Source of the DNA: Fidelibacterota bacterium
GTDB taxonomy: Bacteria; Fidelibacterota; UBA8477; JABMPR01
DNA length: 64,000 nt
Reading direction: 5' to 3'
Assembly: GCA_016844945.1 (NCBI GenBank)
Contig: JAERTJ010000086.1
Coordinates: 115,183 to 179,182 of the forward strand
Position numbers and translations under genes: made by a program. Under the pieces are notes generated by a model, which had not been told where the DNA came from, searched no databases, and was given only the letters and a program-made list of their open reading frames with translations. Below are positions 36,771 through 63,639 of this stretch, in pieces (the first letter of the stretch is position 1; each line of letters starts with the position of its first letter).

Positions 36771-39067
36771 AACAGTGGTTTATCAATCAGTCTGTAGAAA
36801 ACCCAAAAAGAAGTATACTTCTTACCGTTCTTATCACCCTGTTAATGGGTACAGGGCTCATGCATTTCACTGTAGAAGATGATTTCATGAAGATGCTGCC
36901 CCAGGATATCCCTTCCATGGTCACACTAAATGAGTTGAAGGATGAGTTTGGCAGCACAGACCTCATGTTTCTGGGCTTTGGAATTCGTGGCGACGACGTC
37001 TTGACTTCCAAGAATCTGGCTACCCTCTGGGATGTGGCATACGAATTGGAGGAGATCGAATATGTGGATGAGATCATGTGCATCTCTACCACTGATAAGA
37101 TGGAAAGTGTGGATGGATTTCTGGAGGTGATGCCCCTTCAGGAATACCGTGATCTCTCAGCGGAGGAGGTTGCAGCGCTCAGGACTTATCTTGATGAAAA
37201 CTCAAAAATTAAAACACGGAACATCGGTGAGAAGGGTGACTACTTCAATGTGATTATTCGACCTAATATTGGTGCGAAAAATGATGTATTGGTGAGTGAG
37301 ATGGAGGCCATTGCAGATAAATACCTGAGCGACTATGATGTCCATTGGGGTGGGCAGGCATATCTTACTGGGGCTCTACCCGTCATGATACGGAATGATG
37401 TCATGGGTCTCATGCGGGTCGGTTTAATCGGTATGTTACTGATCCTTCTGTTCAGTTTCAGGAATGTACCGGCTGTCCTGGGTGTGCTGGCAACCATTAT
37501 CCTTTCACTTGTGTTTATGCTGGGTTTCAATGGCTGGATGATGAAACTTACCGGGTCTGATAAATTTATGTTCGGCATCCTGAATACCTCCATGCCCATC
37601 ATCCTCTTGACTATAGCTAACTCTTACGGGGTTCATGTTGTCACTAAATTCTTCAGGAAGATGCGGACCAACAAGGATTCCCGGGCAGCCGTAAGAGACA
37701 CACTCAGCTCCCTGATTCTGCCAATCTACCTCACTGCGCTCACAACTGTGGCTGCTTTTCTGTGTATGGTCTTTGCACCTCTGGAACCGCTTTTTGGCTA
37801 CGGTTTTGTTATCTCATCGGGAATTTTGTGGGCCTGGATACTCTCTACCATGTTCCTCCCCTCTATTCTGGTACTGAAAAAGTGGAAACCAGATTCAGCT
37901 GCTGTCTCACACCCAAGTCATTTCGAAAGATTCGTCATCGTTTTTGGTGAACAGGTCATCAAACGCCCCAAGACCGTCCTTATAGGCGGTGCCATTGTGA
38001 TCATGATTGGTATTCTTGGAATATTCAAGCTCAACATTGAAGTAAACATGAAAGCCTTCTTCAAACCGGAAAACCCCATTCGTCAAAGTCTTGAGTTTAT
38101 GGATAATGAGATGACTGGTACCATGGATCTTCAGCTGCTTATCAATGCTGATCTCAAATCCCCAGAGACACTCACGAGGATGGCTAGTATTCAGGAATTC
38201 ATGGAAGCTCATGAATCGGTGACTCTGTCTATCTCAATCGCAGATGTGATCAAGCAGATGCATCGTATGGTCAATGATGATGATCCAGCCTTTGAAACCA
38301 TTCCAGATACACGGGATAAAGTGAATAACCTGTTCACAATGTACTCCATGTCTGGTGATCCTGAGGATTTCAGTTCCCTGGTCGACTATGATTATGAGAA
38401 GGGTCTAGCGACCTCTATGATGAGATCCATATCAACATCCGAAATTGTCGTACTGGTTGAGGAGATTGAAGCATTTCTCCAGCAAGACGATTACAAGGAT
38501 CTGAATATCACCATCACTGGTCTACTTATTGTCTTCAGGGATCTGGTTGCACTGATCATCCAGAGCTCTTTTATCAGCATTCTCGCTTCCATTCTGATAA
38601 TTGCCCTTATTGCTGGTTACTTCTTCAAACATTGGCTCTGGGGTTTGCTAGCCGTTGTGCCTCTCAGCTCAGCCGTAATTCTGAACTTTGGACTCATGGG
38701 TATATTTGGCGTAGATTTAAATCATGTTACTGCCCTCCTGTCAGCCATAATCATCGGTGTCGGTGTAGATTTCGCCATCCATTATATTAGTCAGTTCAGA
38801 ACCCACCTGAATCGTCACGGACTGGATGGTAAGTTAAGCACAGAGACAATGCGTGATGTAGGATTCCCTGTAATTCTGGATGCTGCATCCAACATGGCTT
38901 TTGGTGCGCTGCTATTCTCAGTGTTTATCCCCATGATACATATGGGTGGATTAATGGTGTTCGCCATGGTCTCGACTTCGACTGCGACCCTCACATTGTT
39001 GGCGATTTTGTTGGAACTGAATAAAAAACGTCTGGCCCGTATTGAAGGTATTATGGTCCCTGAATAA
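36767..39067 (+). CDS. MMPL/RND family transporter
   Basis: Same architecture as 33585; TALTTVAAF, GVGVDFAIH; ATGA overlap with tetR. Confidence 0.9.
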   Translation: MKQWFINQSVENPKRSILLTVLITLLMGTGLMHFTVEDDFMKMLPQDIPSMVTLNELKDEFGSTDLMFLGFGIRGDDVLTSKNLATLWDVAYELEEIEYVDEIMCISTTDKMESVDGFLEVMPLQEYRDLSAEEVAALRTYLDENSKIKTRNIGEKGDYFNVIIRPNIGAKNDVLVSEMEAIADKYLSDYDVHWGGQAYLTGALPVMIRNDVMGLMRVGLIGMLLILLFSFRNVPAVLGVLATIILSLVFMLGFNGWMMKLTGSDKFMFGILNTSMPIILLTIANSYGVHVVTKFFRKMRTNKDSRAAVRDTLSSLILPIYLTALTTVAAFLCMVFAPLEPLFGYGFVISSGILWAWILSTMFLPSILVLKKWKPDSAAVSHPSHFERFVIVFGEQVIKRPKTVLIGGAIVIMIGILGIFKLNIEVNMKAFFKPENPIRQSLEFMDNEMTGTMDLQLLINADLKSPETLTRMASIQEFMEAHESVTLSISIADVIKQMHRMVNDDDPAFETIPDTRDKVNNLFTMYSMSGDPEDFSSLVDYDYEKGLATSMMRSISTSEIVVLVEEIEAFLQQDDYKDLNITITGLLIVFRDLVALIIQSSFISILASILIIALIAGYFFKHWLWGLLAVVPLSSAVILNFGLMGIFGVDLNHVTALLSAIIIGVGVDFAIHYISQFRTHLNRHGLDGKLSTETMRDVGFPVILDAASNMAFGALLFSVFIPMIHMGGLMVFAMVSTSTATLTLLAILLELNKKRLARIEGIMVPE

Positions 39068-51263: not shown

Positions 51264-53783
51264 ATGAAATTCAAAGCTCTCATGTTCCTATTCCTGCTGT
51301 TCCTGGTGTCTGTCAGCACAGTTCTCTCAGAACAATCTATCAATGGGTTTATTCGTGAGGACAAGACTGGTGAGCCTCTCCCCTATGCCAACATCATCTT
51401 ACCTGATCTCAACCGCGGTGCTACTTCAAACACTGAAGGTTATTTTGTGATTAGTGATGTACCGGTTGGTTCTCACAAGCTGGTGGTTTCAATCATCGGA
51501 TATAGCCCTGAAGAACACCTTGTACAACTCCCGGTCGATATGAATTTGCGTCTCGACCTGCGACTTGTACAGGCAGTGATTGAAGGTCAGTCCATTGAAG
51601 TCAGTGCAGAACGGGAAAAATTTAAGGAGCTGGTGAGCACAAGTACGGTCACACTTGACCGGAGAGCTATCGAGGTGGCACCATCTTTTGTTGAAGCTGA
51701 TGTGTTCCGAGCGCTTCAACTTCTTCCAGGTGTTCAATCACTCAATGATTTCTCATCAGCACTCTATGTCCGTGGTTCCACGCCTGACCAGAACTTAATT
51801 ATGCTAGATGGCATCACCGTTTACAACCCCATGCATCTCGGAGGTGTTTTTTCAACATTTAATACTGATGCCATCAAAGAGGCGGAATTCCATGCGGGTG
51901 GGTTTCCTGCCCGGTATGGTGGACGATTAGGCTCCATTCTGAATGTCGTTAACCGTGAAGGCAATACTGAAGAGATGAGTGGCAGTGCAAACATCTCTCT
52001 GATTTCAAGTAAAGCCCTTGTCGAAGGACCATTACCCACCGGCGATTCAGAAACCTTAAAAGGATCCTGGATGCTTGCCGGTCGCCGTACATACTTTGAT
52101 CTCATTGCCAATACGGGATGGAAATATTTAATAAAACCGACACTTGATCCAGATGAGCAGGAAAATGCCCCAGATAATATTATGCCCTATTACTTCTATG
52201 ATTTCCAGGGCAAATTGAATCTGGATATTGGTTCGGATCATCGCCTGACCTGGAGTTCATTTTATGGTGATGATGTCCTTTACTGGAACTATGATTATAG
52301 CTATTCCTCAGAAGAGGATAATTATGCCTATGAATCAATTGATTCAGATTACAACTATGAGAACGAAGAGAGCAATACCTTCGATTGGCGTTGGGGGAAT
52401 TTTACCAATAGCCTGAGCTGGCGCTGGATCATCAATCCCAAGTTGATTGCACGCACGGCTATTGCCAACAGTCGATTTCGTTTTGAAGTTGATTTTGATT
52501 TTGATGACCAGGGCCGTTCCCATAGTCCGATGGATACCAACACCTGGGCATCTAATTATGGCTTTGATCTGTTTGACCGTATTAATGACAAGAGTTTTGA
52601 GACTTCTCTAACCTGGCTATATAGTGATAAACATAAAATTTCTTCAGGCTTACAACTCAAACGGGTTCATTTCAATCTGGGAATGATTATTGGAATGGAG
52701 GAATCTACTGAGGACTATCACAACACATTTCTTGACACCCTGATGTGGATGGAGTCCAGACCTACTGAAAGTGCCTTCTACATCCAGGACCAATGGGAGG
52801 TCAATTCATTACTCTCTGTGCAGAGTGGGTTTAGAATTGCCGGATATTCTCTACATGATAAAACCTACATGGAACCGCGATTAGGTCTAAAATATTTTCT
52901 GACTGAAAACTTGTCCCTTAAGGCTTCTGCCGGTCGCTATCACCAATTCTTGACAGTTGCTAATCCTCCGGATGAGAATCTGAGGTTTCTGGATATCTGG
53001 TTTGGAGTTCCAGATGATAGACTGGCTCCACGTTCAGATCATTTTATCATGGGTGCTGAGTATCTTACCAACACTGACATCCTCCTGCGTATGGAAGGCT
53101 ATCATAAATCTTTCGATAATCTGCTGACCCTAAAACCGACAGAATTACTCACAGTTGCTGATGACGGAACTATTCATCTGGATCCGTTCAATGAATTTTG
53201 GGATACTGATGCTTATGCAAATGGCCTGGAAATTCTGGTGAAAAAGCTTTCGGGAAAAGTTCGAGGTTGGGCAGGTTATACCTATGCCGTCACTCAGAGA
53301 AAATATGAAGGGCAAGACTGGTATTACCCGAAGTATGATCGTACACATACACTTAATGTTGTTGCCGATTGGGCACTTTCCAAAAAACTGCACTTTAGCA
53401 CCGCTATTACCTATTCTGGTGGGAATCCATACACGGCTGTGATCGGGCGATCAGAGTCCTATCAGGACAATCAGTGGTCCACAAACAATCAATGGAATGT
53501 ATGGCCGAATTATCTTTATGGTGAGCGTAACGCCGCCCGTTATCCCGGATATTTCAGATGGGATGTCAGTTTTAAGAGAAAAGCTCCCTTTCGGAATGGC
53601 TCCTGGGAATGGTATTTCCAGATTTTAAATGTGACAAACCATTTGAATACCTTTAGTTATATCTATAGACAAAATGAAGATTTTAATTTTGAAACGGGTG
53701 AAATCACGAACAAAGGGGTTCAACGATTTGGCATACCCATGTTTCCATTCTTTCCAACTTTTGGGGTGAAATTTGAATTCTAA
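51264..53783 (+). CDS. TonB-dependent receptor
   Basis: GEPLPYANI, LQLLPGV, VRGSTPDQN, FPARYGGRLGS, C-terminal FEF. Confidence 0.92.
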   Translation: MKFKALMFLFLLFLVSVSTVLSEQSINGFIREDKTGEPLPYANIILPDLNRGATSNTEGYFVISDVPVGSHKLVVSIIGYSPEEHLVQLPVDMNLRLDLRLVQAVIEGQSIEVSAEREKFKELVSTSTVTLDRRAIEVAPSFVEADVFRALQLLPGVQSLNDFSSALYVRGSTPDQNLIMLDGITVYNPMHLGGVFSTFNTDAIKEAEFHAGGFPARYGGRLGSILNVVNREGNTEEMSGSANISLISSKALVEGPLPTGDSETLKGSWMLAGRRTYFDLIANTGWKYLIKPTLDPDEQENAPDNIMPYYFYDFQGKLNLDIGSDHRLTWSSFYGDDVLYWNYDYSYSSEEDNYAYESIDSDYNYENEESNTFDWRWGNFTNSLSWRWIINPKLIARTAIANSRFRFEVDFDFDDQGRSHSPMDTNTWASNYGFDLFDRINDKSFETSLTWLYSDKHKISSGLQLKRVHFNLGMIIGMEESTEDYHNTFLDTLMWMESRPTESAFYIQDQWEVNSLLSVQSGFRIAGYSLHDKTYMEPRLGLKYFLTENLSLKASAGRYHQFLTVANPPDENLRFLDIWFGVPDDRLAPRSDHFIMGAEYLTNTDILLRMEGYHKSFDNLLTLKPTELLTVADDGTIHLDPFNEFWDTDAYANGLEILVKKLSGKVRGWAGYTYAVTQRKYEGQDWYYPKYDRTHTLNVVADWALSKKLHFSTAITYSGGNPYTAVIGRSESYQDNQWSTNNQWNVWPNYLYGERNAARYPGYFRWDVSFKRKAPFRNGSWEWYFQILNVTNHLNTFSYIYRQNEDFNFETGEITNKGVQRFGIPMFPFFPTFGVKFEF

Positions 53784-54831
53784 ATTCTCACAACCCTCTC
53801 CTCCGGACATTGAGCTCGTCGAAATGTCCACAAGCCATAGAAAAATCCTTGGATTACTCAATGCTATAAACCTCAGGCACGAGAGACAGGTTGTGTCATC
53901 TAGATACCCAGGACCGCTTCATATTCTGAAACCTGCGATCCTACTCCTCGTGCTCCTCTTGATAACCTCATGTGGGAATTGGGGTTGGGAATCCATTGAA
54001 ACAGATAATGAAGAAAAGTTAAACGTCTTCGGATTAATCAGTCTTGATGGGGACCTTGAAAGCTTTGTAGTTGTTCACAAAACCCTGGAAACCTCAGGTC
54101 CTGATCAAATAAAAGTCGGTGAAGATAGCTGGGGAAATCCAATTTATGAATCTCTGTATGTAGTTAAGGATGCTCACGTGCTTATCTCTGATGGTGTCAA
54201 TGAATATGTTTTCGAGAGGAGTCCTACACCTGCGGGATCAGAGGATGATTATAGATGGTATGGTGATATTGATAGTGATCCTGGTATATATAAAAACACT
54301 GACAATACATTTACACCTCATTCGAATACGGAGTACACATTAAGAGTAACCACGCCTGCAGGTCTCGAATTACAGGGCTCGACGCAAACGCCACCCTACC
54401 CCCAGATCAATGAATATGCATTGCCGGATACAGTTTCCATCCGTGAATTGTTTAAAGTTCAATGGCATCAAGGCGGTGACTGGGCATCCACCATCGTAAC
54501 GGAGAAGCTGGTACGACAGGACGAATTCATTTGTGGTTTAGAGCAGTATGGGATCAATCAACCCGGGGATACCAGTTGGACCTCAAGTGTCCAATCCTGG
54601 TGTTATGAGTATGAGCCTGATCCAGGCGCTACGGCAAGAATGAAAATTCGCCTACGCTTTCACGATGAAAATTATTACAACTATTTCCTGGCTTCCGAGG
54701 ATGAGGCAGGTGAGATTTCCAACATTCTGATCGGAGAGGGTGGGGTTGGAAAGGCTGAAGGCGTTACAGGAGGTTTTGGTGTTTTCGGTGCCATCAGTAG
54801 TGATTATACCATGCGAATTGCAATCCCCTGA
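53773..54831 (+). CDS. DUF4249-like lipoprotein
   Basis: Lipobox ITSC, C-terminal GGFGVFGA, directly after a TonB receptor; start uncertain. Confidence 0.72.
   Translation: MNSKFSQPSPPDIELVEMSTSHRKILGLLNAINLRHERQVVSSRYPGPLHILKPAILLLVLLLITSCGNWGWESIETDNEEKLNVFGLISLDGDLESFVVVHKTLETSGPDQIKVGEDSWGNPIYESLYVVKDAHVLISDGVNEYVFERSPTPAGSEDDYRWYGDIDSDPGIYKNTDNTFTPHSNTEYTLRVTTPAGLELQGSTQTPPYPQINEYALPDTVSIRELFKVQWHQGGDWASTIVTEKLVRQDEFICGLEQYGINQPGDTSWTSSVQSWCYEYEPDPGATARMKIRLRFHDENYYNYFLASEDEAGEISNILIGEGGVGKAEGVTGGFGVFGAISSDYTMRIAIP
53805..53829 (+). repeat. REP-like palindrome
   Basis: GGACATTGAGCTCGTCGAAATGTCC with GGACATT/AATGTCC arms. Confidence 0.6.
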
Positions 54832-54833
54832 TT

Positions 54834-56762
54834 CTATTTCAAGTAAACGACTTTGGAATGAGCATATATGCTTGAGTTGGTACTCGACTCACTGAAGCCA
54901 ACCTGGATCAGGTATACACCAGATTCAACGGATTGACCACTGCTATCCTTTCCCTTCCAGATGAAATCAAATGGCTCCTTTGCGAGATTCGATTGAAGTT
55001 TTTCAAGAATCAATTCGCCTCGTAAACTGTATATCTGGATACTTAGATTGCCTGGTTGCGGGATATCCACCTTGATGGTTGTCTGGGGGTTAAAAGGATT
55101 TGGATAATGATCCACATTTAATGTTGTTTGAGGCAACACTGGTTCGATGTCAGTCGCAGAAATGTTGATACTGGTTGAGTCCAGAACAATGGGCGCCAGG
55201 TTCATCTGATCATAATAAGATTGAAACTCTATAACTTCCGGCATGTCGTGTTCGAATAGGTCCTGAGCAAAACGCGGTGCTATGGTCTGGTAATTCATTT
55301 TGGCAGTGATCATGTAGTTCGATTGTGGATTCAGATTTGAAATCAGATAGTGTACTTTATCCATACCCGTGCCTTCAACCGAGCCATCCCTGTTAAAATC
55401 AATATCCCCCTGGGCAAGACCAATAATTGCAGTTGAATCTACAGCAACACCCATGGAAGTATAGCCTAGAGGAGGAATCCGATTATCCTTCAGATATCCT
55501 GCGATCCTGAGGAGTGTATAGGTTTTGGCTCCATTGAGATCTGAGGGGATGTTTTGATAAATTTGAACCTGGTCTTCTGAGTCAATCAATTGATGGTGAG
55601 GTTCATATCCTTCATCCAAACCAACAATCTCACCTGATGCATCCCAGGCACCTGAATGAAACTGCACAATTCCGCTCTCATCCATGACTTTGAGTTCAAG
55701 CCAGGCACGTCTGCTGGGATAGGCTGTGGGGAACTTGTGACCACTTAGATTTTCAACATTTAGAGACACTGTCAATAGATCATCGCCTTCACTCCAGGCA
55801 GCTGAGAGGTCGAGATGAACTGAATGGTTTTGGAGCATATCCATCGTTCTTGATATACTTGAATCAAAATGGGCAGTACTGGCAGTAACCTCAAGTTCTG
55901 AGCTAAAATCACGCAACATGCGGAGCATAAATACATTTCCACCAACAAACTCATGCGTATGCAGCGGATTTCTATCATTCAACCAGGGTGGACGATTAGC
56001 GATCGCAATATTTTCCTCTATCGCTGGCATGTGACAGGTCTGACACTCGATACCCTGCTCAGGGTATACGCTATTCAACCATTCAAGGTAGGGCACCTGC
56101 TCCGGTGCTTCTCCAGCAATTTGTCCGTCGTCATCAACGTAAGGAGTAAACAGGGTATGACAGGTCGCACACATCTCTGAGCTCGAGACATGATCACTGA
56201 ATTCAGGTCTATAGTTAATCATGTTGATCATAGGACCTGTGACGGGGTTCTCGAAGGGCCCATAGATTTTTCGCTCATCACCAATGCTGTAATGCCCGGA
56301 GAAGCTCTCACCCTGACCCAGATTCTGATCCTGAATTTGGTGGCAGCCAGCACAACTCACTCCATCCATCGCCAGAGGATCGATCAACATTTCAGAAATG
56401 GTATAACTTTCACTCCCTGTCAAGATAGCCTCGGTTCGTCCCATCGGGGCATGGCAGGTCGAGCATTTGTCTTCAATTATCGATTGCAGTTCAGGATGTG
56501 CTGAAATCTCAGCCTGAACTTTTGCCTGCCAGAGGGGGTCTTTGGCAGAGTTTGCCATCATGGTTGACCGCCACCAGCTGGCCTGTGATACATTCTGTCC
56601 CTGGTTATCAACCAATGCTCCGGGATTGGGGTCACCCTGACTATGGCACGTTGCACAGGATCCTGAACCCACAAATAAGGTCGATGAACCAGTGGGTAAA
56701 GCCTGAGCAGCCAGCCCGGATGTTAGTAATAAAGCAATAATTTGTATGCGAACCTTTTTCAT
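54834..56762 (-). CDS. Pentaheme c-type cytochrome with T9SS type-A/FlgD-Ig C-terminal domain
   Basis: Signal peptide; CATCH, CSTCH, CAGCH, CATCH, CQTCH; YPNPFNP...WKGKD...SGVY...KVVYLK. Confidence 0.88.
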   Translation of the reverse strand: MKKVRIQIIALLLTSGLAAQALPTGSSTLFVGSGSCATCHSQGDPNPGALVDNQGQNVSQASWWRSTMMANSAKDPLWQAKVQAEISAHPELQSIIEDKCSTCHAPMGRTEAILTGSESYTISEMLIDPLAMDGVSCAGCHQIQDQNLGQGESFSGHYSIGDERKIYGPFENPVTGPMINMINYRPEFSDHVSSSEMCATCHTLFTPYVDDDGQIAGEAPEQVPYLEWLNSVYPEQGIECQTCHMPAIEENIAIANRPPWLNDRNPLHTHEFVGGNVFMLRMLRDFSSELEVTASTAHFDSSISRTMDMLQNHSVHLDLSAAWSEGDDLLTVSLNVENLSGHKFPTAYPSRRAWLELKVMDESGIVQFHSGAWDASGEIVGLDEGYEPHHQLIDSEDQVQIYQNIPSDLNGAKTYTLLRIAGYLKDNRIPPLGYTSMGVAVDSTAIIGLAQGDIDFNRDGSVEGTGMDKVHYLISNLNPQSNYMITAKMNYQTIAPRFAQDLFEHDMPEVIEFQSYYDQMNLAPIVLDSTSINISATDIEPVLPQTTLNVDHYPNPFNPQTTIKVDIPQPGNLSIQIYSLRGELILEKLQSNLAKEPFDFIWKGKDSSGQSVESGVYLIQVGFSESSTNSSIYAHSKVVYLK

Positions 56763-56869
56763 CAATCACTTCTTTTCAAGTTTCATCGCCTCGTTGAAAA
56801 TCAACTGCCCCAACAAATGTCAGGGCAATTGATACAGGGAGGAAGTCCCTTCACAGGGACAGTTAACTT

Positions 56870-57358
56870 TTATGGACGACCCATTCTACCCGGGCGATTC
56901 TCTCTGCGACCGGAATTTCTTCCACCACGGTCACCTTGATCTTGACGAGGTCCACGATTTCCACGGGGTCCAAACTCATGCTGATCAAATACAATTTGCT
57001 GGTCAGGGGTTAAAAGTGCTCTGATCTCTCCGCGATGTGAATTCATTAATGCATCCATGGCAGTCCGGTTGGCAGCAATTGCAGCTTCCAATTCGGCGAT
57101 TCTCTCAGCATCAGGATTGTCACTACGATTAAGCTCACGCAATTCTCTTTCCAGGGATCGGGTTGTCTGGCGAATTTCCTGCATGGCAGGTTGCATGGCA
57201 TCCCGAAGCTCGGTAATGGCTTGCATTTGTTCAGTAGTGAGGTTTAAGTTTTCATCCCAGGTTAATTGTCTACCCCCTCCCCGACGACCCTGTGACAGGG
57301 CGATGGAGGCAGTAAGTATGATCAACAATAGTATTCTAAATTTCATTCTTAACTCCAT
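56870..57358 (-). CDS. Spy/CpxP/ZraP-like periplasmic protein
   Basis: Signal peptide, LNLTTEQ and LLTPDQ motifs, RG-rich ends; TAATG overlap with upstream gene. Confidence 0.85.
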   Translation of the reverse strand: MELRMKFRILLLIILTASIALSQGRRGGGRQLTWDENLNLTTEQMQAITELRDAMQPAMQEIRQTTRSLERELRELNRSDNPDAERIAELEAAIAANRTAMDALMNSHRGEIRALLTPDQQIVFDQHEFGPRGNRGPRQDQGDRGGRNSGRRENRPGRMGRP

Positions 57359-58521
57359 TAATTATTAATATTTAAAGTAACACTGTAATTTCTACTTGCA
57401 TAATCATATAGCGGGTCATTCGAGCTATTTACGGTCCAACCGCTATTAAGGACCAGCTCAATTCCAGGAACCCACATATTGACAGATCTATCCAGAATTA
57501 CACTCCAATTAAATTGAACACTCATGTTTTCATCTGATCGATCGATCCCCAGATCAACATAAGCTTCATCCTCGATGACATACTCCTGATTCTCAAAATC
57601 AAAGGCATAAACTGGAACATCTAGATAATCCTTTCCGCGTAGCGAATAGGATAGCTTCAAAGTGTTTCTGGTATTCATTTTATAATTGAGTCGAAATGAG
57701 GTTGAAGCACCTGTCCATCTGAAGCGATCGATAAACGGGTTGTTGATTGCATCCTGCCAATTGAGTAGGCTGGCTGAGTCATTGAGGAGGGATTGGTAAC
57801 CTAACCATCCGGTGAATCCCATTTTTTGACCGATTGACTGGCTCACGCGAAGTTCAGATCTCAATAATTGATTATCAGGAATTTGTTCCACATCATAGCT
57901 GTCGATCCAGAAATTCTGAAAGGCAATAGAATTTCTGAGGTTGATTGATGTCCGGGTCTGGAAGGACTGGTTGTAGGTAAGGTACAATTCATGATCTGTA
58001 TTTGATGCTTCTTCAACTTCTTCAAACTGATTGAAATTCAAGTCGTACCCTGAAATGATCAGCTGTGTGGTTTTGAAGTAGTGCTTCCATTTTAAATAGA
58101 GCCCATATCCGTTGCTATTGAAATAACTATAGTCATCATGATAGCGATTCAGAAATGCATACAACCCACCATAGATCTGATTGTCCTGGATGTCCAGATA
58201 GCGCAGTTGCACACCGACTTCTCCATCGTTGGAGGAATATTGAGCATAAGGATATATCTGCATGTGGGATACATCTACATATGCCCGTAATTTATCGCTG
58301 AGGATTGAGCTGAATGTGAATGAGCTGGTTCCATATGAAGCATCGTCAAGCAACTTGCTTCCCAGAAGATAATCTGCATTCCCGATTACGTTATCAAAGG
58401 TGAATGAATTATCACCAGCCTTTACTTCAACAGATGTAAAAGCAACGAGCAGAAATAGATTTGCCAGGATCGACCTTAGAAGTGTGTCTATCATTCTGTG
58501 ATTTCTGGTTTCCATTGGCAA
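57358..58521 (-). CDS. Probable outer-membrane beta-barrel protein
   Basis: Signal-like segment, alternating aromatic strands, ends NSSNDPLYDY...YSVTLNINN. Confidence 0.65.
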   Translation of the reverse strand: MPMETRNHRMIDTLLRSILANLFLLVAFTSVEVKAGDNSFTFDNVIGNADYLLGSKLLDDASYGTSSFTFSSILSDKLRAYVDVSHMQIYPYAQYSSNDGEVGVQLRYLDIQDNQIYGGLYAFLNRYHDDYSYFNSNGYGLYLKWKHYFKTTQLIISGYDLNFNQFEEVEEASNTDHELYLTYNQSFQTRTSINLRNSIAFQNFWIDSYDVEQIPDNQLLRSELRVSQSIGQKMGFTGWLGYQSLLNDSASLLNWQDAINNPFIDRFRWTGASTSFRLNYKMNTRNTLKLSYSLRGKDYLDVPVYAFDFENQEYVIEDEAYVDLGIDRSDENMSVQFNWSVILDRSVNMWVPGIELVLNSGWTVNSSNDPLYDYASRNYSVTLNINN

Positions 58522-58578
58522 GATATCCTATTGACCTCTATTTGACTTCACAATATACAATTGGATTATCTACAGTCA

Positions 58579-58600
58579 GGGGAGGATTTGCATCCTCCCC
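58579..58600. other. Intercistronic GC-rich hairpin without U tract
   Basis: GGGGAGGAT-TTGC-ATCCTCCCC. Confidence 0.6.
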
Positions 58601-58616
58601 AACCGTATTTCATTAT

Positions 58617-59228
58617 TTAGTTTACGCTTTTTACCCGGTTTTGTTGTTCAGCGCGAGCACCTGGGTCTCGGCTAAATTCACCTGGGCCAGGTCGAACACC
58701 ACGTCCCCCACGACCAGGTCTGTCACCTTCGCCACCGCGACGTCCACCGCGACGATCATCTCCAAACCTGCCATCTTCAGGACGTACATAGTCTTCATCA
58801 GCATAATTTGGGATACCATCACCGTCATCATCTGGGGCATTATCGTTATAACCATCACCATCTTCATCGATAAATTCACCACCACCATGACGTCCACCTC
58901 GGCCATCTTCTGGACGTACATAGTCCTCATCGTAGCGGTTTGGGATACCATCACCATCATCATCTGGGGCGTTATCATTGTAGCCATCACCATTTTCATC
59001 AACGAAGTTGGGATGCACATAATCTTCATCAGCATAATTAGGAATGCCATCACCATCATCATCTGGCGCGTTGTCATTGTAGCCATCACCGTTTTCATCA
59101 ACGAAACCACCGCCAGGACCATTGCCACCAAAGCCATTTCCTGGTCCCTGAGCATACACTGGACTGGCAATTGCGAACAGACTCATTGCTGCTAACATCA
59201 CCAGAAGTGTCATCAGATTCTTTTTCAT
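58617..59228 (-). CDS. Secreted protein with three acidic Ca-binding-type repeats
   Basis: AAGGAG RBS, signal peptide, three copies of F(V/I)DE(N/D)GDGYNDNAPDDDGDGIPNxxDEDYVxP, RG-rich tail. Confidence 0.85.
   Translation of the reverse strand: MKKNLMTLLVMLAAMSLFAIASPVYAQGPGNGFGGNGPGGGFVDENGDGYNDNAPDDDGDGIPNYADEDYVHPNFVDENGDGYNDNAPDDDGDGIPNRYDEDYVRPEDGRGGRHGGGEFIDEDGDGYNDNAPDDDGDGIPNYADEDYVRPEDGRFGDDRRGGRRGGEGDRPGRGGRGVRPGPGEFSRDPGARAEQQNRVKSVN
58779..59105 (-). repeat. Intragenic triple repeat
   Basis: Units start at 59105, 59006 and 58874 (periods 99 and 132 nt), many synonymous differences. Confidence 0.85.
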
Positions 59229-59285
59229 TTTGATTCTCCTTATCTTGGTTTGTCTTTTTTCACTCATAACAGTTGCCCCTCATAG

Positions 59286-59301
59286 TCCAATTGCTATGCC
59301 A
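59286..59301 (-). promoter_or_regulatory. Sigma54-like -24/-12 promoter
   Basis: TGGCATAGCAATTGGA versus consensus TGGCACGNNNNTTGCW; -12 reads TTGG. Confidence 0.6.
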
Positions 59302-59390
59302 GAGATTCCCAGGAGAAATTTAATCGTTATATCATACTGTTATTATTGTATTAACACATTCTTGTTTAGTGAACAGGAGAGAAGAATTTT

Positions 59391-59425
59391 TCGACAAAAT
59401 GGGGTGAGTTCGACAATATTGTCGA
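59391..59425. promoter_or_regulatory. Putative enhancer (UAS) for the sigma54 activator
   Basis: Perfect palindrome TCGACAATATTGTCGA (59410-59425) and half-site TCGACAAAAT (59391). Confidence 0.62.
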
Positions 59426-59450
59426 GAAATATACGAATAAATCATCATGT

Positions 59451-59504
59451 GTCATCTCGAGCGGATCCAAGAGATATTTATCCCTCGACTAGGATCGGCA
59501 TGAC
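59451..59504. repeat. REP-like inverted pair
   Basis: GTCATCTCGAGCGGATCCAAGAGAT ... ATCCCTCGACTAGGATCGGCATGAC. Confidence 0.6.
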
Positions 59505-59538
59505 GATTGGAAGGCTTATTTCGGAGGTATGCTAGAAA

Positions 59539-60870
59539 TTATTTAAGATGATATTTCTGGAGTTTGTAACGCAGAACGCGCTCGCTGACACCTAATCTTC
59601 GAGCACATTCACTTTGATTCCCATTTGATTCAGTAAGGGTTCTCCTTATGAGATCAGCCTCCAGGTCACCCACTGATGATTTAAGTTTCCCAGATGGTTT
59701 TGACTGTTGTTTGGGTTGAGGCAAATTCAACCCATCGGGTAAAATCTCGGGTGCTTCACATAATAAGACGGCTCGTTCGATGAGATTTCCCAATTCACGA
59801 ACATTTCCAGGGAACTGATACCCTTTGAGTACCGCCATCGCTGCTTCTGAAAACTTTAATCCGGAACGGCTTTCTCGGTGAGAATATTTCTGGAGGAAGT
59901 GATTTGTGAGAAGCTCGATATCACTTCGACGCTCTCGAAGTGGTGGAATGTGCAAATTTATGACATTGAGTCGATAGTATAAATCTTCCCTGAACTCACC
60001 TAGCTCGATAGCATGTTCCAAATCTACATTAGTAGCAGCAATCACACGAACATCAGAGGTATATACTATATTTTCACCGATCCGTTGAAACTCCCCACTC
60101 TGTAGAAATCTCAACAACTTGGTTTGCATCTCCATAGGTAGGTCGCCGATTTCATCCAGGAACAAGGTGCCGCCATCTGCTTCTTCAAACCGTCCTGTTC
60201 TGGATGCCGTTGCCCCTGTAAAGGCACCCTTTTCATGACCAAACAATTCACTTTCTATAAGATGGCTGGGCAGTGCTGCACAATTCACTGCGACCATAGC
60301 CTTACTTGATCTTGGTGAATGTTTGTGAATATGGTCAGCCAGGACTTCCTTACCCACACCAGTCTCTCCGGTAATAAGGACTGTTACCTGACTGGAGGCT
60401 ACCCTTGTTGCCTGCTTGATAATGGTTAGCATTGCAGGATCTTCAGCGAGATAGTCTGAATCCCCCATTAAATCAGAATTTGTCGTGTCGTGCTCCCCTC
60501 GTCTTTCAGCCAGATGAGCTTCAATTCCCTTGATGAGACTTTCAAGCTGATCAAGATCAACGGGTTTTGTGAGAAAATCCCAAGCTCCGGACTTCATGGC
60601 ATTAACAGCGATGTCAACAGTTCCAAATGCTGTGATCAAGACAAGGATGGTTCCCGGGTGGCGTGATTTCACCTCGTTCAAAAGATCTACACCTGTCATA
60701 TATGGCATTTTGTAATCTGACAGAACAATGTCCACCTGATAGTTGTGCATATGAGCCAAAGCAGTCTGTGCAGAGTCTGCGGTGCTCACATCATAGCCGA
60801 TCTTTTCCAGGAATCCCGCCAATGATTCACGCTGCAACTGTTCATCATCAACAATCAATAATTTGGTCAT
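59539..60870 (-). CDS. Sigma54-dependent response regulator (NtrC/ZraR family)
   Basis: REC (VDDE, SDYKMP), GETGVGKE, GAFTGA, FLDEIG, FREDLYYRL, Fis HTH. Confidence 0.95.
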   Translation of the reverse strand: MTKLLIVDDEQLQRESLAGFLEKIGYDVSTADSAQTALAHMHNYQVDIVLSDYKMPYMTGVDLLNEVKSRHPGTILVLITAFGTVDIAVNAMKSGAWDFLTKPVDLDQLESLIKGIEAHLAERRGEHDTTNSDLMGDSDYLAEDPAMLTIIKQATRVASSQVTVLITGETGVGKEVLADHIHKHSPRSSKAMVAVNCAALPSHLIESELFGHEKGAFTGATASRTGRFEEADGGTLFLDEIGDLPMEMQTKLLRFLQSGEFQRIGENIVYTSDVRVIAATNVDLEHAIELGEFREDLYYRLNVINLHIPPLRERRSDIELLTNHFLQKYSHRESRSGLKFSEAAMAVLKGYQFPGNVRELGNLIERAVLLCEAPEILPDGLNLPQPKQQSKPSGKLKSSVGDLEADLIRRTLTESNGNQSECARRLGVSERVLRYKLQKYHLK

Positions 60871-62579
60871 TGTCTCACCGGTATTTTGATTTCAATATTT
60901 GTTCCTGAGTTAACCACACTCTCCACATCCAGACTTCCCTGATGATCAGCGATGATTTTATGGGTAAGAGCCAAACCAACCCCAGTGCCCATGTCTTTGG
61001 TGGTGTAGTATAAATCGAATATACGGCTAAGCTGATCTGCTTCGATACCACTTCCGCTATCCCTGACAGATATAACAATCTTATCCCCTGATTTTCTACC
61101 AATCATTCGCACTGTATCGCCAGTTTCGCAAGCATCCAGAGCATTTTTAACCAGATTGGAGATTGCCTGTTTTAAATATTCAGTATCAGCCTCGAATCGG
61201 ATAGATTCACTCTCCACCAGGAGTGTCACATTCTGATCCATAGCTTGAGATTGGTAGAGCTCTTTGATCTGCCTCAACACCTCTCCCAAATTTAGCTCTG
61301 AATAATTCAAGGGAGTTGGTCGTGTGTATTCCAGAAAATCCTGAAGAGAATCATTAATTCGTCCAATCTCAGACACCATAGTACCTGTTAGAGATAGGTA
61401 GTCCTCAGAATCAGTTTTTGGTTCAAACTCACGTTTCAGGCGTTGGGCTACAATCCCGATTGCATTGAGTGGGTTGCGAATCTCATGAGCCACCCCAGCA
61501 GCCAGTTCACCCATAGCCGCCTGTTTCTCACGCATACGGTTAAGTTTTTCCAGCTGATGAACTTCGGCTTCAATCCGCTGCTTCTCCCGCTCCAGCAGAG
61601 CGGCGTTTTGCCGAGAAATAAGAAAGATCAGAATGGCAAATGCCAGGAGGGTAAGCAGGGTCGTGCGCACCAGAATTTGATATATGATTTGCCCTCGAAG
61701 ATTGACCAGAGTATCGTCTTCAAAGCCAATGCGAACTTCACCGACATCAGTACCAAAGAATACGGGACGAACCACTTCAAGCAGTGTGGTGTCAGCAATA
61801 TTCACTTCATACAGGATGTCAGCCAGAGGTGTACGCGACCAGCTATCGTCAATCTTCACGCCATTCTTTGATACGAAATATGGCTCATGGCTATCAAGGG
61901 ATAATTGGAGATATTTTAGTCCCTTCACATGTAGGAGGTCTTCCAGGGCAGATTCCATTTCGGTCAAATAGCGAAAATCTTCAGCAGCTTCTACAGAGAG
62001 CTGACATGTGATAGCCCCCCCGCGGCTCCTAGGTATGGCAACCAGAAATTGCTCATCCTCAAGAAATTCATTTCCAATGATATCATCTTGATCATCAATA
62101 CCAAAAATGATTACATCCTGTTTATTGTTCAGAATAGGTTCAAGCTTTTCTTTGACCCATACATTTTCTGAAACATCACTGGGGTCAACACCCTTTGATA
62201 ATTTTCCAACTGATCGTTCGATGTTACCATCACTATCGAAGGTGGTCACTTCAAGAATGGTGTCATCATTCACCAGCTCATCCAGATCCTGTTTTGACAA
62301 TGCCTGCTCTGAATCCATGTGATTGAGGAGTGTCAAAAGGTCTATTGCCCTGTCAACATATGCATATTTGAGCTCTTCAGTGAGATAAGCCTGGCCACTG
62401 CCACTCTGAGCAATGACCGCTGCAGTCATGGCTGCCTGGTCCTGGATAAGTTGAAGCAACTCACGATATCTAGATTTATACTCAAGATAGGTTGACAGGA
62501 AGAGAATGCCCAGCACACCAAGGTAAAGCAAGATATACCATGGTTTAAGTCTGAGTAGTTTTTTTGCTGGTTTCAGCAA
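60867..62579 (-). CDS. Sensor histidine kinase
   Basis: Two TMs around a large periplasmic domain, AHEIRNPL, NLVKNA, DSGSG, GTGVGL; ATGA overlap with the regulator. Confidence 0.93.
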   Translation of the reverse strand: MLKPAKKLLRLKPWYILLYLGVLGILFLSTYLEYKSRYRELLQLIQDQAAMTAAVIAQSGSGQAYLTEELKYAYVDRAIDLLTLLNHMDSEQALSKQDLDELVNDDTILEVTTFDSDGNIERSVGKLSKGVDPSDVSENVWVKEKLEPILNNKQDVIIFGIDDQDDIIGNEFLEDEQFLVAIPRSRGGAITCQLSVEAAEDFRYLTEMESALEDLLHVKGLKYLQLSLDSHEPYFVSKNGVKIDDSWSRTPLADILYEVNIADTTLLEVVRPVFFGTDVGEVRIGFEDDTLVNLRGQIIYQILVRTTLLTLLAFAILIFLISRQNAALLEREKQRIEAEVHQLEKLNRMREKQAAMGELAAGVAHEIRNPLNAIGIVAQRLKREFEPKTDSEDYLSLTGTMVSEIGRINDSLQDFLEYTRPTPLNYSELNLGEVLRQIKELYQSQAMDQNVTLLVESESIRFEADTEYLKQAISNLVKNALDACETGDTVRMIGRKSGDKIVISVRDSGSGIEADQLSRIFDLYYTTKDMGTGVGLALTHKIIADHQGSLDVESVVNSGTNIEIKIPVRQ

Positions 62580-62595
62580 TGGAGTCCTCTACGAA

Positions 62596-63639
62596 TTAAC
62601 CCAGGACATCCCAGGCATGCTGCAATAGTCTCTCTGTTGTATCAAAACTAACACAGGCATCTGTGATGGAGACCCCGTAGTCCAGCAGACTCAGATCTTC
62701 TGGTATCTTTTGATTCCCTTCAAACAGATTACTCTCCAGCATCATCCCGATCAGCGCACGGTTTCCTGCTACCCGCTGTGAGAGAATACTATTCCAGACC
62801 TTTTCCTGTTGTTCGAATTTCTTACCGGAGTTGGCATGTGAACAATCCACCATGATAGCCTGGTGTAGGTCATTCATTTCCATTCTCTGTGATGTCTCGA
62901 GGATGCTGCCGGGTTCATAGTTTGGCCGGGTTTCTCCTCCCCGGAGAATGATATGTCCTAATTTATTCCCTGTGGTTTCAACGACAGCAATTTGCCCATC
63001 TTGATCAACTCCAATAAAGTGATGGGGGTGACGGGCACTCACCATGGCATCAATAGCCACCTGTAAACTACCTGTGGTGCTATTTTTAAAGCCAACTGGC
63101 ATGGAAAGACCTGAAGCCATCTGCCTATGAGTCTGACTCTCCGTAGTTCGGGCTCCAATGGCGGACCATGAGACAAGATCATCAATGTACTGCGGTGTAA
63201 TGGGGTCCAGGAATTCAGTACCAGCTGGTACTCCCATATCATTAATGGCTGCCAGGAGTTTTCGTCCACGTCTCAAGCCTTCATCTATAAGATAGCTTCC
63301 ATCCAGATTTGGATCATAGGTTAACCCCTTCCACCCGATGGTAGTTCTCGGCTTTTCAAAATAGACACGCATGACAATAAATATTCTGTCTTCATACTTC
63401 GAGCGAAGGGCATTCAAGCGATTTGCATACTCCAAAGCAGCTTTAGGATCATGAATTGAACAGGGTCCGGCAATCACGAGGAGTCGTTTGTCCTTTCCTT
63501 CAAGGATATCGTTAATGGCCTCACGTGCTTCAATCACTGTCCTATTGGCATTTTCAGTGACGGGAAATTCATCTTTCAATGCTCTGGGTGAAGAGAGAGG
63601 ATAAAATCCTTTAATGTGTAGATCTTGTGTCATTTTCAT
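62596..63639 (-). CDS. aroG: 3-deoxy-7-phosphoheptulonate synthase, class I (AroG/F/H type)
   Basis: [41 protein letters not shown]. Confidence 0.9.

Follow-up and report, generated by a model that had tools for sequence, protein, structure and literature searches.

Why would a bacterium keep a two-component system, a repeat protein, an outer-membrane barrel, a small periplasmic protein and a multiheme cytochrome side by side, and which of these belong to one and the same response? The question is raised by a 64,000-nucleotide stretch of DNA from a Fidelibacterota bacterium, analysed as a whole and called here the window (C86:115183-179182 in a 4.73-Mb assembly of 234 contigs, about 91% complete), in which positions 54834-62579 are filled by six minus-strand open reading frames (ORFs). 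Homologues of its proteins carry source names of Candidatus Marinimicrobia or Neomarinimicrobiota, and the sequencing runs that contain this DNA are seawater metagenomes, two runs of one study. Read in the direction of transcription, they encode a sensor histidine kinase (HK), a sigma-54 response regulator of the NtrC family (RR), an Asp/Gly-rich secreted repeat protein (REP), an outer-membrane beta-barrel (BAR), a periplasmic LTXXQ protein (SPY) and a pentaheme c-type cytochrome (CYT). The initial annotation had delimited six co-oriented genes at these very coordinates, which our analysis bears out, and had taken them for an expanded Zra-like system adding a surface redox protein, a link that proved overstated, CYT being the neighbour of the module in one subclade only. 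The explanation that we put first, and that we hold with about as much belief as doubt, is a sigma-54 two-component envelope operon, REP-BAR-SPY, which would serve a Zra-like cation or metal stress response outside ZraPSR itself, with CYT as a separate gene behind it. Genome comparison strongly supports the co-inheritance of HK and the NtrC-type RR with REP and BAR across Marinisomatota, Ignavibacteriota, Calditrichota and KSB1; equally strong is the support for a -24/-12 box before REP and a palindrome about 125 bp further upstream, both conserved, and for a conserved two-hairpin element after SPY. The function of the module, an envelope or cation response of the Zra/Cpx type, is what we infer by analogy.

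The company that the genes keep is the first support for this explanation. A scan of the genome contigs with the single BAR sequence gave nothing, and a mixed BAR alignment had no conserved stretch; hence, we searched the genomes of the phylum and scanned further with one distant member of the family. BAR was found in 18 of the 22 other genomes of the genus, and the order kinase-regulator-REP-BAR-SPY is kept wherever the contig allows it, the genes flanking BAR having been examined in all 18 loci (contig ends remove the kinase and/or the regulator from 3 of them). A sister family has REP-BAR-SPY as well, with the kinase-regulator pair in divergent orientation. At 50% identity, a profile search with all-against-all comparison gave 425 representatives of the BAR family, which is present in 64 of 301 Marinisomatota genomes and 27 of 104 genera and seldom has more than one copy per genome. 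The scan with the distant BAR added 19 loci, the record titles of which name Melioribacteraceae, Ignavibacteriales, Calditrichota (including Caldithrix abyssi), KSB1, Caldisericaceae and “Bacteroidetes” metagenome-assembled genomes. Among 39 distant loci, 33 have an ORF with the motif D-x-[DN]-G-D-G on the same strand within 1.5 kb upstream of BAR, and a REP-like ORF lies near BAR in 37 once 3.5 kb of downstream sequence is included; a sigma-54 regulator, usually with its kinase, adjoins in most of the distant loci that are not cut by a contig end. Since the LTXXQ gene occurs in only some Marinisomatota families, and is absent from most distant loci, the core is made of the two-component system, REP and BAR, to which SPY is accessory: judging by gene content, SPY is a lineage-specific addition rather than a constant member, and REP and BAR are the invariant partners. 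A gene-neighbourhood search had been suggested in the initial annotation as a check; the neighbourhood holds across phyla for REP, BAR and the two-component genes, and fails for SPY and the cytochrome, both of which are inconstant.

A different arrangement is seen in Calditrichota and in one Marinisomatota family (L146, L150, L122 and L137), where the order is kinase, REP, BAR, regulator and a second REP. Output genes are interleaved there with signalling genes, an arrangement that points to a possible part of REP and BAR in sensing.

The second support lies in the 271-bp spacer between RR and REP, which holds a palindrome, a further half-site and a -24/-12 box (Table 1). A palindromic enhancer and a -24/-12-like box had been announced ahead of the first exported gene, and both are indeed present and conserved among related loci. 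In the 20 related loci where the regulator and REP are co-oriented, TGGCAY-N5-TTG[GA] is found in every spacer (20/20) and the full palindrome TCGACA-N4-TGTCGA in 15 of them, at -103 to -135 of the box, with an extra half-site about 20 bp further on in most; because the sequence between the box and the palindrome elements varies across the spacers, this conservation amounts to a phylogenetic footprint. In the 4.73-Mb assembly, the palindrome has a single occurrence, and rpoN was found in the same genome. The signal extends to the distant loci, 19 of which (out of 39) have the box at most 150 nt upstream of a REP-like ORF; boxes are about 46 times as dense upstream of such ORFs (2.33 per kb) as in the scanned DNA taken together (0.051 per kb), and the identical palindrome recurs in 7 of the 39, lying 84-128 nt upstream of the box in the 5 where a box was detected. 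Genome-wide, TGGCAY-N5-TTG[GC][AT] has 25 matches, at least one of them intragenic, and 18 end in TTGG, not TTGC, which could mean that this lineage has a different -12 element in its sigma-54 promoters. One more sigma-54-like box, at position 37035 of the window, is inside a 766-aa ORF and was taken as a chance match.

Table 1. Genes and predicted regulatory features of the locus, in window positions and in the order of transcription.
Feature	Position	Strand	Remarks
HK, sensor histidine kinase, 570 aa	60867-62579	-	HisKA and HATPase_c (Pfam); two transmembrane segments
RR, NtrC-family sigma-54 response regulator, 443 aa	59539-60870	-	REC, Sigma54_activat with GAFTGA, HTH_8
Perfect palindrome TCGACAATATTGTCGA	59410-59425		Predicted upstream activating sequence, together with the third half-site
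Third half-site TGTCGA	59391-59396		Part of the same predicted upstream activating sequence (59391-59425)
Predicted sigma-54-type -24/-12 promoter TGGCATAGCAATTGGA	59286-59301	-	TGGCAT-N5-TTGG
REP, Asp/Gly-rich secreted protein, 203 aa	58617-59228	-	ORF extends to 59267; likely start ATG 59228, behind AAGGAG
Stem-loop after REP, GGGGAGGAU..AUCCUCCCC	58571-58607	-	No U tract; z = -6.34, 0/200 shuffles as stable
BAR, unnamed family, 387 aa	57358-58521	-	16-strand outer-membrane beta-barrel (AlphaFold2 model); likely start ATG 58515
SPY, periplasmic LTXXQ (Spy/CpxP/ZraP-family) protein	56870-57358	-	PF07813, 44.8 bits against a cut-off of 24.3; likely start ATG 57346
3' element of the operon	56797-56860	-	Hairpin 1, single-stranded stretch, hairpin 2, UUUU
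Hairpin 1	56845-56860	-	Lies in an 80-nt element with z = -5.05, 0/200 shuffles
Conserved, nearly invariant single-stranded UUCCUCCCUGU	56834-56844	-	Anti-Shine-Dalgarno-like
Hairpin 2, the longer one	56800-56833	-	Overlaps the UUUU run at 56797-56800
CYT, pentaheme c-type cytochrome	54834-56765	-	Five CXXCH motifs, beta-sandwich, type IX secretion system (T9SS) type A sorting domain

The signalling pair itself is of a familiar kind. RR scores 98.8 bits with PF00072, 242.9 bits with PF00158 and 48.5 bits with PF02954, and with a REC domain, an AAA+ domain bearing GAFTGA and a C-terminal Fis-type helix-turn-helix, it is, by its domain content, an NtrC-family bacterial enhancer-binding protein. 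Its gene overlaps that of HK by 4 bp. HK has a periplasmic part of about 265 aa between its two hydrophobic segments, for which we obtained no Pfam match and nothing meaningful among PDB sequences; distant HK orthologues match dCache_3 weakly (E 0.0016-0.0076). The Zra-like architecture put forward in the initial annotation is found in so far as a kinase, a sigma-54 regulator, an LTXXQ protein and a predicted enhancer and promoter are all there; it is not found at the level of the individual proteins, all three of which fall below the cut-offs of the ZraS, ZraR and ZraP models, not to mention the inconstancy of the LTXXQ gene. HK is not a ZraS equivalog (NF007688, 181.7 bits against 479, over the transmitter part only, residues 284-569), RR is not a ZraR equivalog (NF007689, 385.9 bits against 760) and SPY is not a ZraP equivalog (NF008584, 16.9 bits against 200). 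RR is, in fact, below every NCBIfam equivalog cut-off, its AtoC score being 451 against 714, and the AtoC and NtrC models outscore the ZraR model.

We propose that a cue from the periplasm or the outer membrane is perceived by the large periplasmic domain of the kinase, which in turn phosphorylates the regulator; the latter would then bind the palindrome and open the sigma-54 promoter for the transcription of REP-BAR-SPY. The stem-loop after REP might stabilise or attenuate the transcript, leaving REP in excess over BAR and SPY. In the envelope, REP would bind divalent or hard cations, with BAR as its outer-membrane partner, channel or translocon, and the LTXXQ protein could act as a periplasmic chaperone or feedback partner in the manner of Spy, CpxP and ZraP. 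CYT would have been inserted once, in one subclade of the genus and downstream of a terminator-like element; its product would be exported separately by the T9SS and its gene most likely expressed from a promoter of its own or by weak read-through.

REP itself has a signal peptide, Gly/Asn-rich linkers and an Arg/Gly-rich tail, along with three copies of the repeat F-[IV]-D-E-[ND]-G-D-G-Y-N-D-N-A-P-D-D-D-G-D-G-I-P-N..D-E-D-Y, each 30-residue unit of which holds two D-x-D-G-D-G loops; His- or Cys-rich sites are lacking. The likeness to thrombospondin type 3 repeats does not, as we take it, go beyond the D-x-D-G-D-G motif. Across 21 aligned orthologues the repeat core does not vary, and the copy number ranges from 1 to 3 among the orthologues listed, the two proteins with three copies being those of the window and of L020, a locus outside the 21 aligned. 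REP has at least 1548 relatives, none of them named; of the 120 listed, 1 has a precomputed Pfam entry. All 23 loci examined have a hairpin at this position after REP.

Some particularities of REP should be recorded here. A single C-terminal Cys, in the context G-[DE]-C, is found in 16 of the 21 aligned orthologues (17 with the G-S-C of L018); it comes a few residues earlier in L032-L034, and the window has G-E-F at this position and a tail that is Arg-rich rather than Gly/Asn-rich. ORFs in other frames overlap REP at 58461-59195 (+, 244 aa) and 58631-59170 (-, 179 aa), as by-products of the GAT/GGT-rich repeat DNA, and the antisense ORF can displace REP in naive ORF picking in related loci, as is the case in L120.

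BAR, for its part, has no Pfam match, even at E 10. Its AlphaFold2 model, built with 23 aligned relatives, has 16 strands and a mean predicted local distance difference test (pLDDT) score of 83, and the barrel begins at about residue 38, so close behind the signal helix that no room is left for a POTRA domain. Foldseek returned generic barrels (OmpG, OprD, PgaA and AlgE) with TM-scores of about 0.45-0.5, and a fold search of the whole PDB with VIA-align placed three 16-strand barrels of CdiB and FhaC on top (Z 20.5-21.8, root-mean-square deviation 3.0-3.2), with porins at Z 18-19. These matches bring in the most serious of the competing explanations, which we regard as unlikely but deserving of attention: REP and BAR would be a two-gene secretion pair under the two-component switch, BAR being the translocon and REP its abundant exported cargo, a Ca2+- or metal-binding matrix, coat or “metallophore”. 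That each of the three best matches is a CdiB/FhaC-type barrel speaks for such a pair, although the best porin (Z 19.0) and the polysaccharide exporters PgaA and AlgE are only 2-4 Z units lower and BAR has neither POTRA nor TPR domains, its barrel following the signal peptide directly. The genes are placed as cargo and machinery would be, with REP directly upstream of BAR in 33 of the 39 distant loci and stop and start codons sometimes overlapping, and the conserved stem-loop after REP would fit an abundant product followed by its exporter; yet REP itself shows neither a TPS domain nor a lipobox. PF04575, the Slam or type XI secretion barrel family, is matched by 3 of 36 BAR family members at E ≤ 0.1 (best E 3.3e-5), but the BAR of the window has no match to it even at E 10, nor did control genomes give any. 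In the ESM Atlas, a BAR homologue falls among unnamed clusters, with one look-alike cluster that has PF04575 in 19% of its members. As for the wider surroundings, PMC8406197 describes Slam-type barrels encoded beside their cargo and near TonB-dependent receptors, and a receptor of this type is found next to the module in this genus as well as in two further families. A complex prediction for BAR (residues 35-387) with REP (residues 28-203) scored 0.02 against a mark of 0.32, with an uncertain REP fold, and counts neither way.

Returning to the operon as a Zra-like response, its last gene and its 3' end come next. SPY carries two LTXXQ motifs (LTTEQ and LTPDQ) and an Arg/Gly-rich tail and is, on its profile match, a member of the LTXXQ superfamily PF07813; against the PDB it gave weak matches to CpxP and Spy, and its scores on the Spy and CpxP equivalog models, 24.5 and 19.5 bits, are both far below the cut-offs, as for ZraP. 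Two hairpins without U tracts had been reported in the initial annotation, at 58579 and 56845; both are real, the first being the stem-loop after REP and the second hairpin 1 of the 3' element, and what had been missed is the longer hairpin 2, which runs into a UUUU run. Compensatory changes are seen in 9 of the 15 predicted pairs of the element in an alignment of 19 sequences. The two-hairpin element is present in loci with and without the cytochrome and, therefore, belongs to the end of the operon, not to the cytochrome. The U tract of the window is only UUUU, and a terminator consensus scan made no minus-strand call there, the orthologues having longer T-rich tails; the element is probably an intrinsic terminator. 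The 3' untranslated region (3'UTR) of SPY is also a candidate for a 3'UTR-derived small RNA. Rfam gave no match over 54000-63000 at E up to 1, and the complement of UUCCUCCCUGU matches 24 sites of 10-13 nt in the genome, a few of them at ribosome-binding sites, with no clear target set.

What, then, is CYT? Its sorting domain scores 26.2 bits with TIGR04183 against a cut-off of 23, the genome has a match to the PorU sortase model (675 bits against 420, contig C92) and many other tailed proteins, and CYT is, by these profile matches, a T9SS type A cargo, which implies surface display. In the structural model, the beta-sandwich region is confident and the heme domain has a pLDDT below 50; the first Foldseek match is 5ZE8, the c552 of Thermochromatium tepidum (E 3.8e-9, TM-score 0.51 on the target), to which the CYT-family profile also aligns, weakly (E 0.0015), through a shared G-H-x-x-P-T-x-x-P-x-R. 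Sequence and model together place CYT in the c552/ExtKL (PHC) family. PMC11976967 unites c552, Geobacter ExtKL and GSU2801 and the cable-bacteria sPHC/lPHC in this family, and assigns no clear role to c552. A search with residues 25-545 of CYT retrieved at least 7583 proteins at E ≤ 0.001 (8000 candidates scored), and identities above 50% reach proteins named Caldithrix, Calditrichaeota and Ignavibacteria. We compared the neighbourhoods of the 80 loci retained out of 572 confirmed ones, with flanks of up to 9 kb; their titles comprise Marinimicrobiota, Calditrichota, KSB1, Ignavibacteriota, Bacteroidota, Desulfobulbales, Sumerlaeota, Verrucomicrobiota, Acidobacteriota, Chromatiales and Aquificota. 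No REP, BAR or SPY was present within these flanks in 76 of the 80 loci, the other 4 being all from the genus of the window, and the clustering of neighbours across the 80 loci brought out no shared partner.

Within the genus, the picture is more favourable to the initial annotation, which had counted the cytochrome in the module. CYT adjoins SPY in 10 of the 22 other genomes, that is, in 11 of the 19 module-bearing genomes when the window is counted. In a regulator-plus-BAR tree of 20 loci, from which two truncated loci were excluded, the CYT-bearing loci form one clade, with a single nested locus devoid of CYT; because they form one clade, the synteny is real but goes back to one insertion. 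Eight genomes of the genus have the five-gene core without CYT, SPY being followed by a convergent DUF4249/TonB-receptor pair or by DAHP synthase, and in the sister genus the CYT orthologue is about 52 kb from the module on the same contig. The match to the CYT orthologue of L022 (G012:C2:90802-92695) is split in two, the first piece containing both a TAG and a TAA; this copy is either a pseudogene or the product of an assembly error. Hence, the syntenic part of the claim stands, and membership in the module does not: the association is a single event, behind a terminator-like element, and the module is missing at most of the family loci compared.

That the six genes nevertheless form one unit, in which the barrel and the surface CYT would make up an extracellular electron-transfer or mineral device under Zra-like control, is in our view improbable. 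CYT does come directly after the operon in those 11 of 19 genomes, but this goes back to a single event in evolution, after which CYT was lost once, and one copy is interrupted by stop codons; the eight CYT-less genomes retain the five-gene core. In the window, the start of CYT is a mere 31 nt away from the weak U tract; even so, a conserved two-hairpin terminator-like element stands before the gene, and between the terminator tail and the CYT start, 7 of 11 loci have a TAnnTT[AT]G-like motif which may be a putative FCB-type promoter of its own (FCB, Fibrobacterota-Chlorobiota-Bacteroidota), the motif being missing from the 31-nt spacer of the window. The precedent for such a unit comes from Geobacter, where ExtKL, of the PHC family, are encoded with the barrel ExtI and the small periplasmic ExtJ (10.1101/169086 and PMC11976967). 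The 16-strand barrel of BAR is, however, much narrower than conduits of 21 to 26 strands; ExtI has 21 according to 10.1101/169086. Redox partners do recur beside the core, namely DUF4405 in 13 of the 39 distant loci, a PHC-like tetraheme gene and genes with 16-37 hemes, and, since the 20 ORFs with three or more CXXCH motifs in the genome of the window occupy only about nine places in 4.73 Mb, chance adjacency to a multiheme gene should be uncommon. Against this stand the absence of the module at 76 of the 80 CYT-family loci compared and the fact that CYT has an export route of its own, the T9SS.

The redox neighbours just mentioned deserve a closer look. In L123 and L131, the next same-strand gene encodes a DUF2202 protein, which we take to be ferritin-like, and a rubrerythrin, respectively, and in L127 a ferredoxin followed by a polyferredoxin membrane protein. 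More frequent is an ORF of about 280 aa after BAR or SPY, which in many distant loci contains DUF4405 (E 1e-14 to 1e-19); a hidden Markov model built from five of these proteins recognises the same sub-family in 13 of the 39 distant loci, at E 1e-93 or better and in three or more phyla, and no member of this sub-family in the genome of the window. According to 10.1101/2024.03.13.584918, DUF4405 proteins bind heme b and are kin to FezC, a ferrosome protein; transfer of electrons across the cytoplasmic membrane is the role proposed for them there. A redox or iron link of the module is, thus, a possible one, the lineages being few and related. The weakest of the competing explanations, in which the module handles envelope iron or redox stress, REP buffering Fe/Mn, BAR admitting or releasing it and a variable third partner (DUF4405 cytochrome b, ferritin-like protein, rubrerythrin or, here, the PHC cytochrome) supplying or removing electrons, draws on the heme-b binding of DUF4405 and its kinship to FezC (10.1101/2024.03.13.584918), on that dedicated DUF4405 family and on the DUF2202, rubrerythrin and ferredoxin genes, and we consider it the least probable, given that the genome has no member of the DUF4405 family in question, that REP has no His/Cys-rich sites and lacks in the window the Cys of most orthologues, and that the neighbours vary among loci.

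Further genes around the module may be noted. In the window, a CarboxypepD_reg-type TonB-dependent receptor and a DUF4249 protein (51264-54831, +) are convergent to the module, as in every locus of the genus, and TonB-dependent receptors are also found 3' of the module in two other families (L120 and L121). ORFs with 12 to 37 CXXCH motifs lie within a few kb of REP-BAR in another Marinisomatota family (L137, G212:C3) and in Calditrichota (L152 and L156), and one Ignavibacteriales record (L142) has a PHC-like tetraheme gene between BAR and the kinase. Elsewhere in the genome of the window are two large multiheme clusters, on C11 (about 50-67 kb) and C198 (about 76-82 kb), the ORFs of which have as many as 18 and 30 CXXCH motifs; the genome has two weak DUF4405 matches, and these fall inside the C11 cluster.

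One has to weigh the Zra-like operon, which we still prefer, against several observations that do not favour it. The predicted promoter is canonical in its -24 element only, the -12 element reading GG instead of GC. Ca or metal binding by REP is predicted from the Asp-Gly loop motif: compared with the thrombospondin type 3 models PF18884 and PF02412, REP reached only E 2.2 and 8.7 bits against a cut-off of 25 with PF18884 (TSP3_bac), and the REP profile had no match among PDB sequences. SPY, on which much of the Zra/Cpx analogy turns, is missing from most distant loci, so the analogy may miss the ancestral function, and the redox and iron neighbours agree less well with a plain chaperone response than with a role in redox or iron handling. 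Lastly, with four U's and a 31-nt spacer, read-through into CYT is quite possible in the window.

Some of these threads could also be tied into a joint reading, to which we give little credence: REP-BAR as an export system capturing a hard cation, with interchangeable redox partners, uptake by a TonB receptor and a CpxQ-like small RNA. Were it true, the FCB group would have an envelope system in which a sigma-54 switch turns on an abundant polyanionic REP together with a dedicated POTRA-less exporter of the TpsB/Slam kind. REP would capture Fe, Mn, Ca or a rare earth, outside the cell or in the periplasm; a DUF4405 cytochrome b in most lineages, or the T9SS-displayed CYT in this subclade, would process the metal; and the adjacent TonB-dependent receptor would import it, while the 3'UTR would yield a CpxQ-like small RNA with an anti-Shine-Dalgarno seed.

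Whichever function prevails, what appears to be new is a conserved regulatory unit of the FCB group with two large families, REP and BAR, that are unnamed in any source seen. The initial annotation knew of no description of this combination, and our literature searches, which did not cover the supplementary neighbourhood tables of the DUF4405 and Slam papers, found none either. One sigma-54 switch goes with both families in no fewer than four groups of phylum rank, among them, by record title, the cultivable genus Caldithrix. Few of the abundant Marinimicrobia (SAR406) and their FCB relatives have been cultured, and almost nothing is known of their envelope biology; a readable putative operator, promoter and terminator make this signal-response pathway accessible to reporter and metal-binding assays. 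CYT, on the other hand, is a local add-on from the very widespread PHC family and provides no basis for annotating the module as an electron conduit.

Among known systems, the closest in design is ZraS/ZraR/ZraP, the sigma-54 system with which Escherichia coli and Salmonella respond to envelope and zinc stress, and in which a membrane kinase and an NtrC-type regulator likewise control a periplasmic LTXXQ protein. In that system, zraSR is divergent from zraP, just as the kinase-regulator pair of the sister family is divergent from REP-BAR-SPY. ZraPSR, however, is without the repeat protein and the barrel, which are the invariant targets here, whereas the LTXXQ gene comes third in the operon and is dispensable across lineages, and SPY has no His-rich metal site. 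The 3' end recalls another LTXXQ gene, cpxP, the mRNA of which gives rise to the small RNA CpxQ from its 3'UTR: SPY, too, is followed by a 5' hairpin, a conserved single-stranded stretch and a probable terminator hairpin. The likeness is one of layout, as the SPY 3'UTR has no sequence likeness to CpxQ and no Rfam match. With the TpsB proteins FhaC and CdiB, BAR shares the 16-strand barrel, the top fold matches and a gene adjoining that of a small secreted protein; it differs from TpsB and Slam in the absence of POTRA or TPR domains, and its putative cargo, in that of a TPS domain or lipobox. The heme-b cytochromes associated with flavinylation and ferrosomes have their counterpart in the DUF4405 protein that is frequent beside the wider module and absent from the module of this genome. 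In the ExtHIJKL cluster of Geobacter sulfurreducens, a barrel, a small periplasmic protein and a pentaheme cytochrome of the PHC family are side by side as they are here, but, according to 10.1101/169086, ExtI has 21 transmembrane strands and the regulator is of the LysR type, against a 16-strand BAR and an NtrC-type regulator in the window, where CYT comes after a terminator-like element and in one subclade only. To c552 (5ZE8) and the PHC family, finally, CYT is akin in its five CXXCH motifs followed by a beta-sandwich, an architecture to which it adds a T9SS sorting domain.

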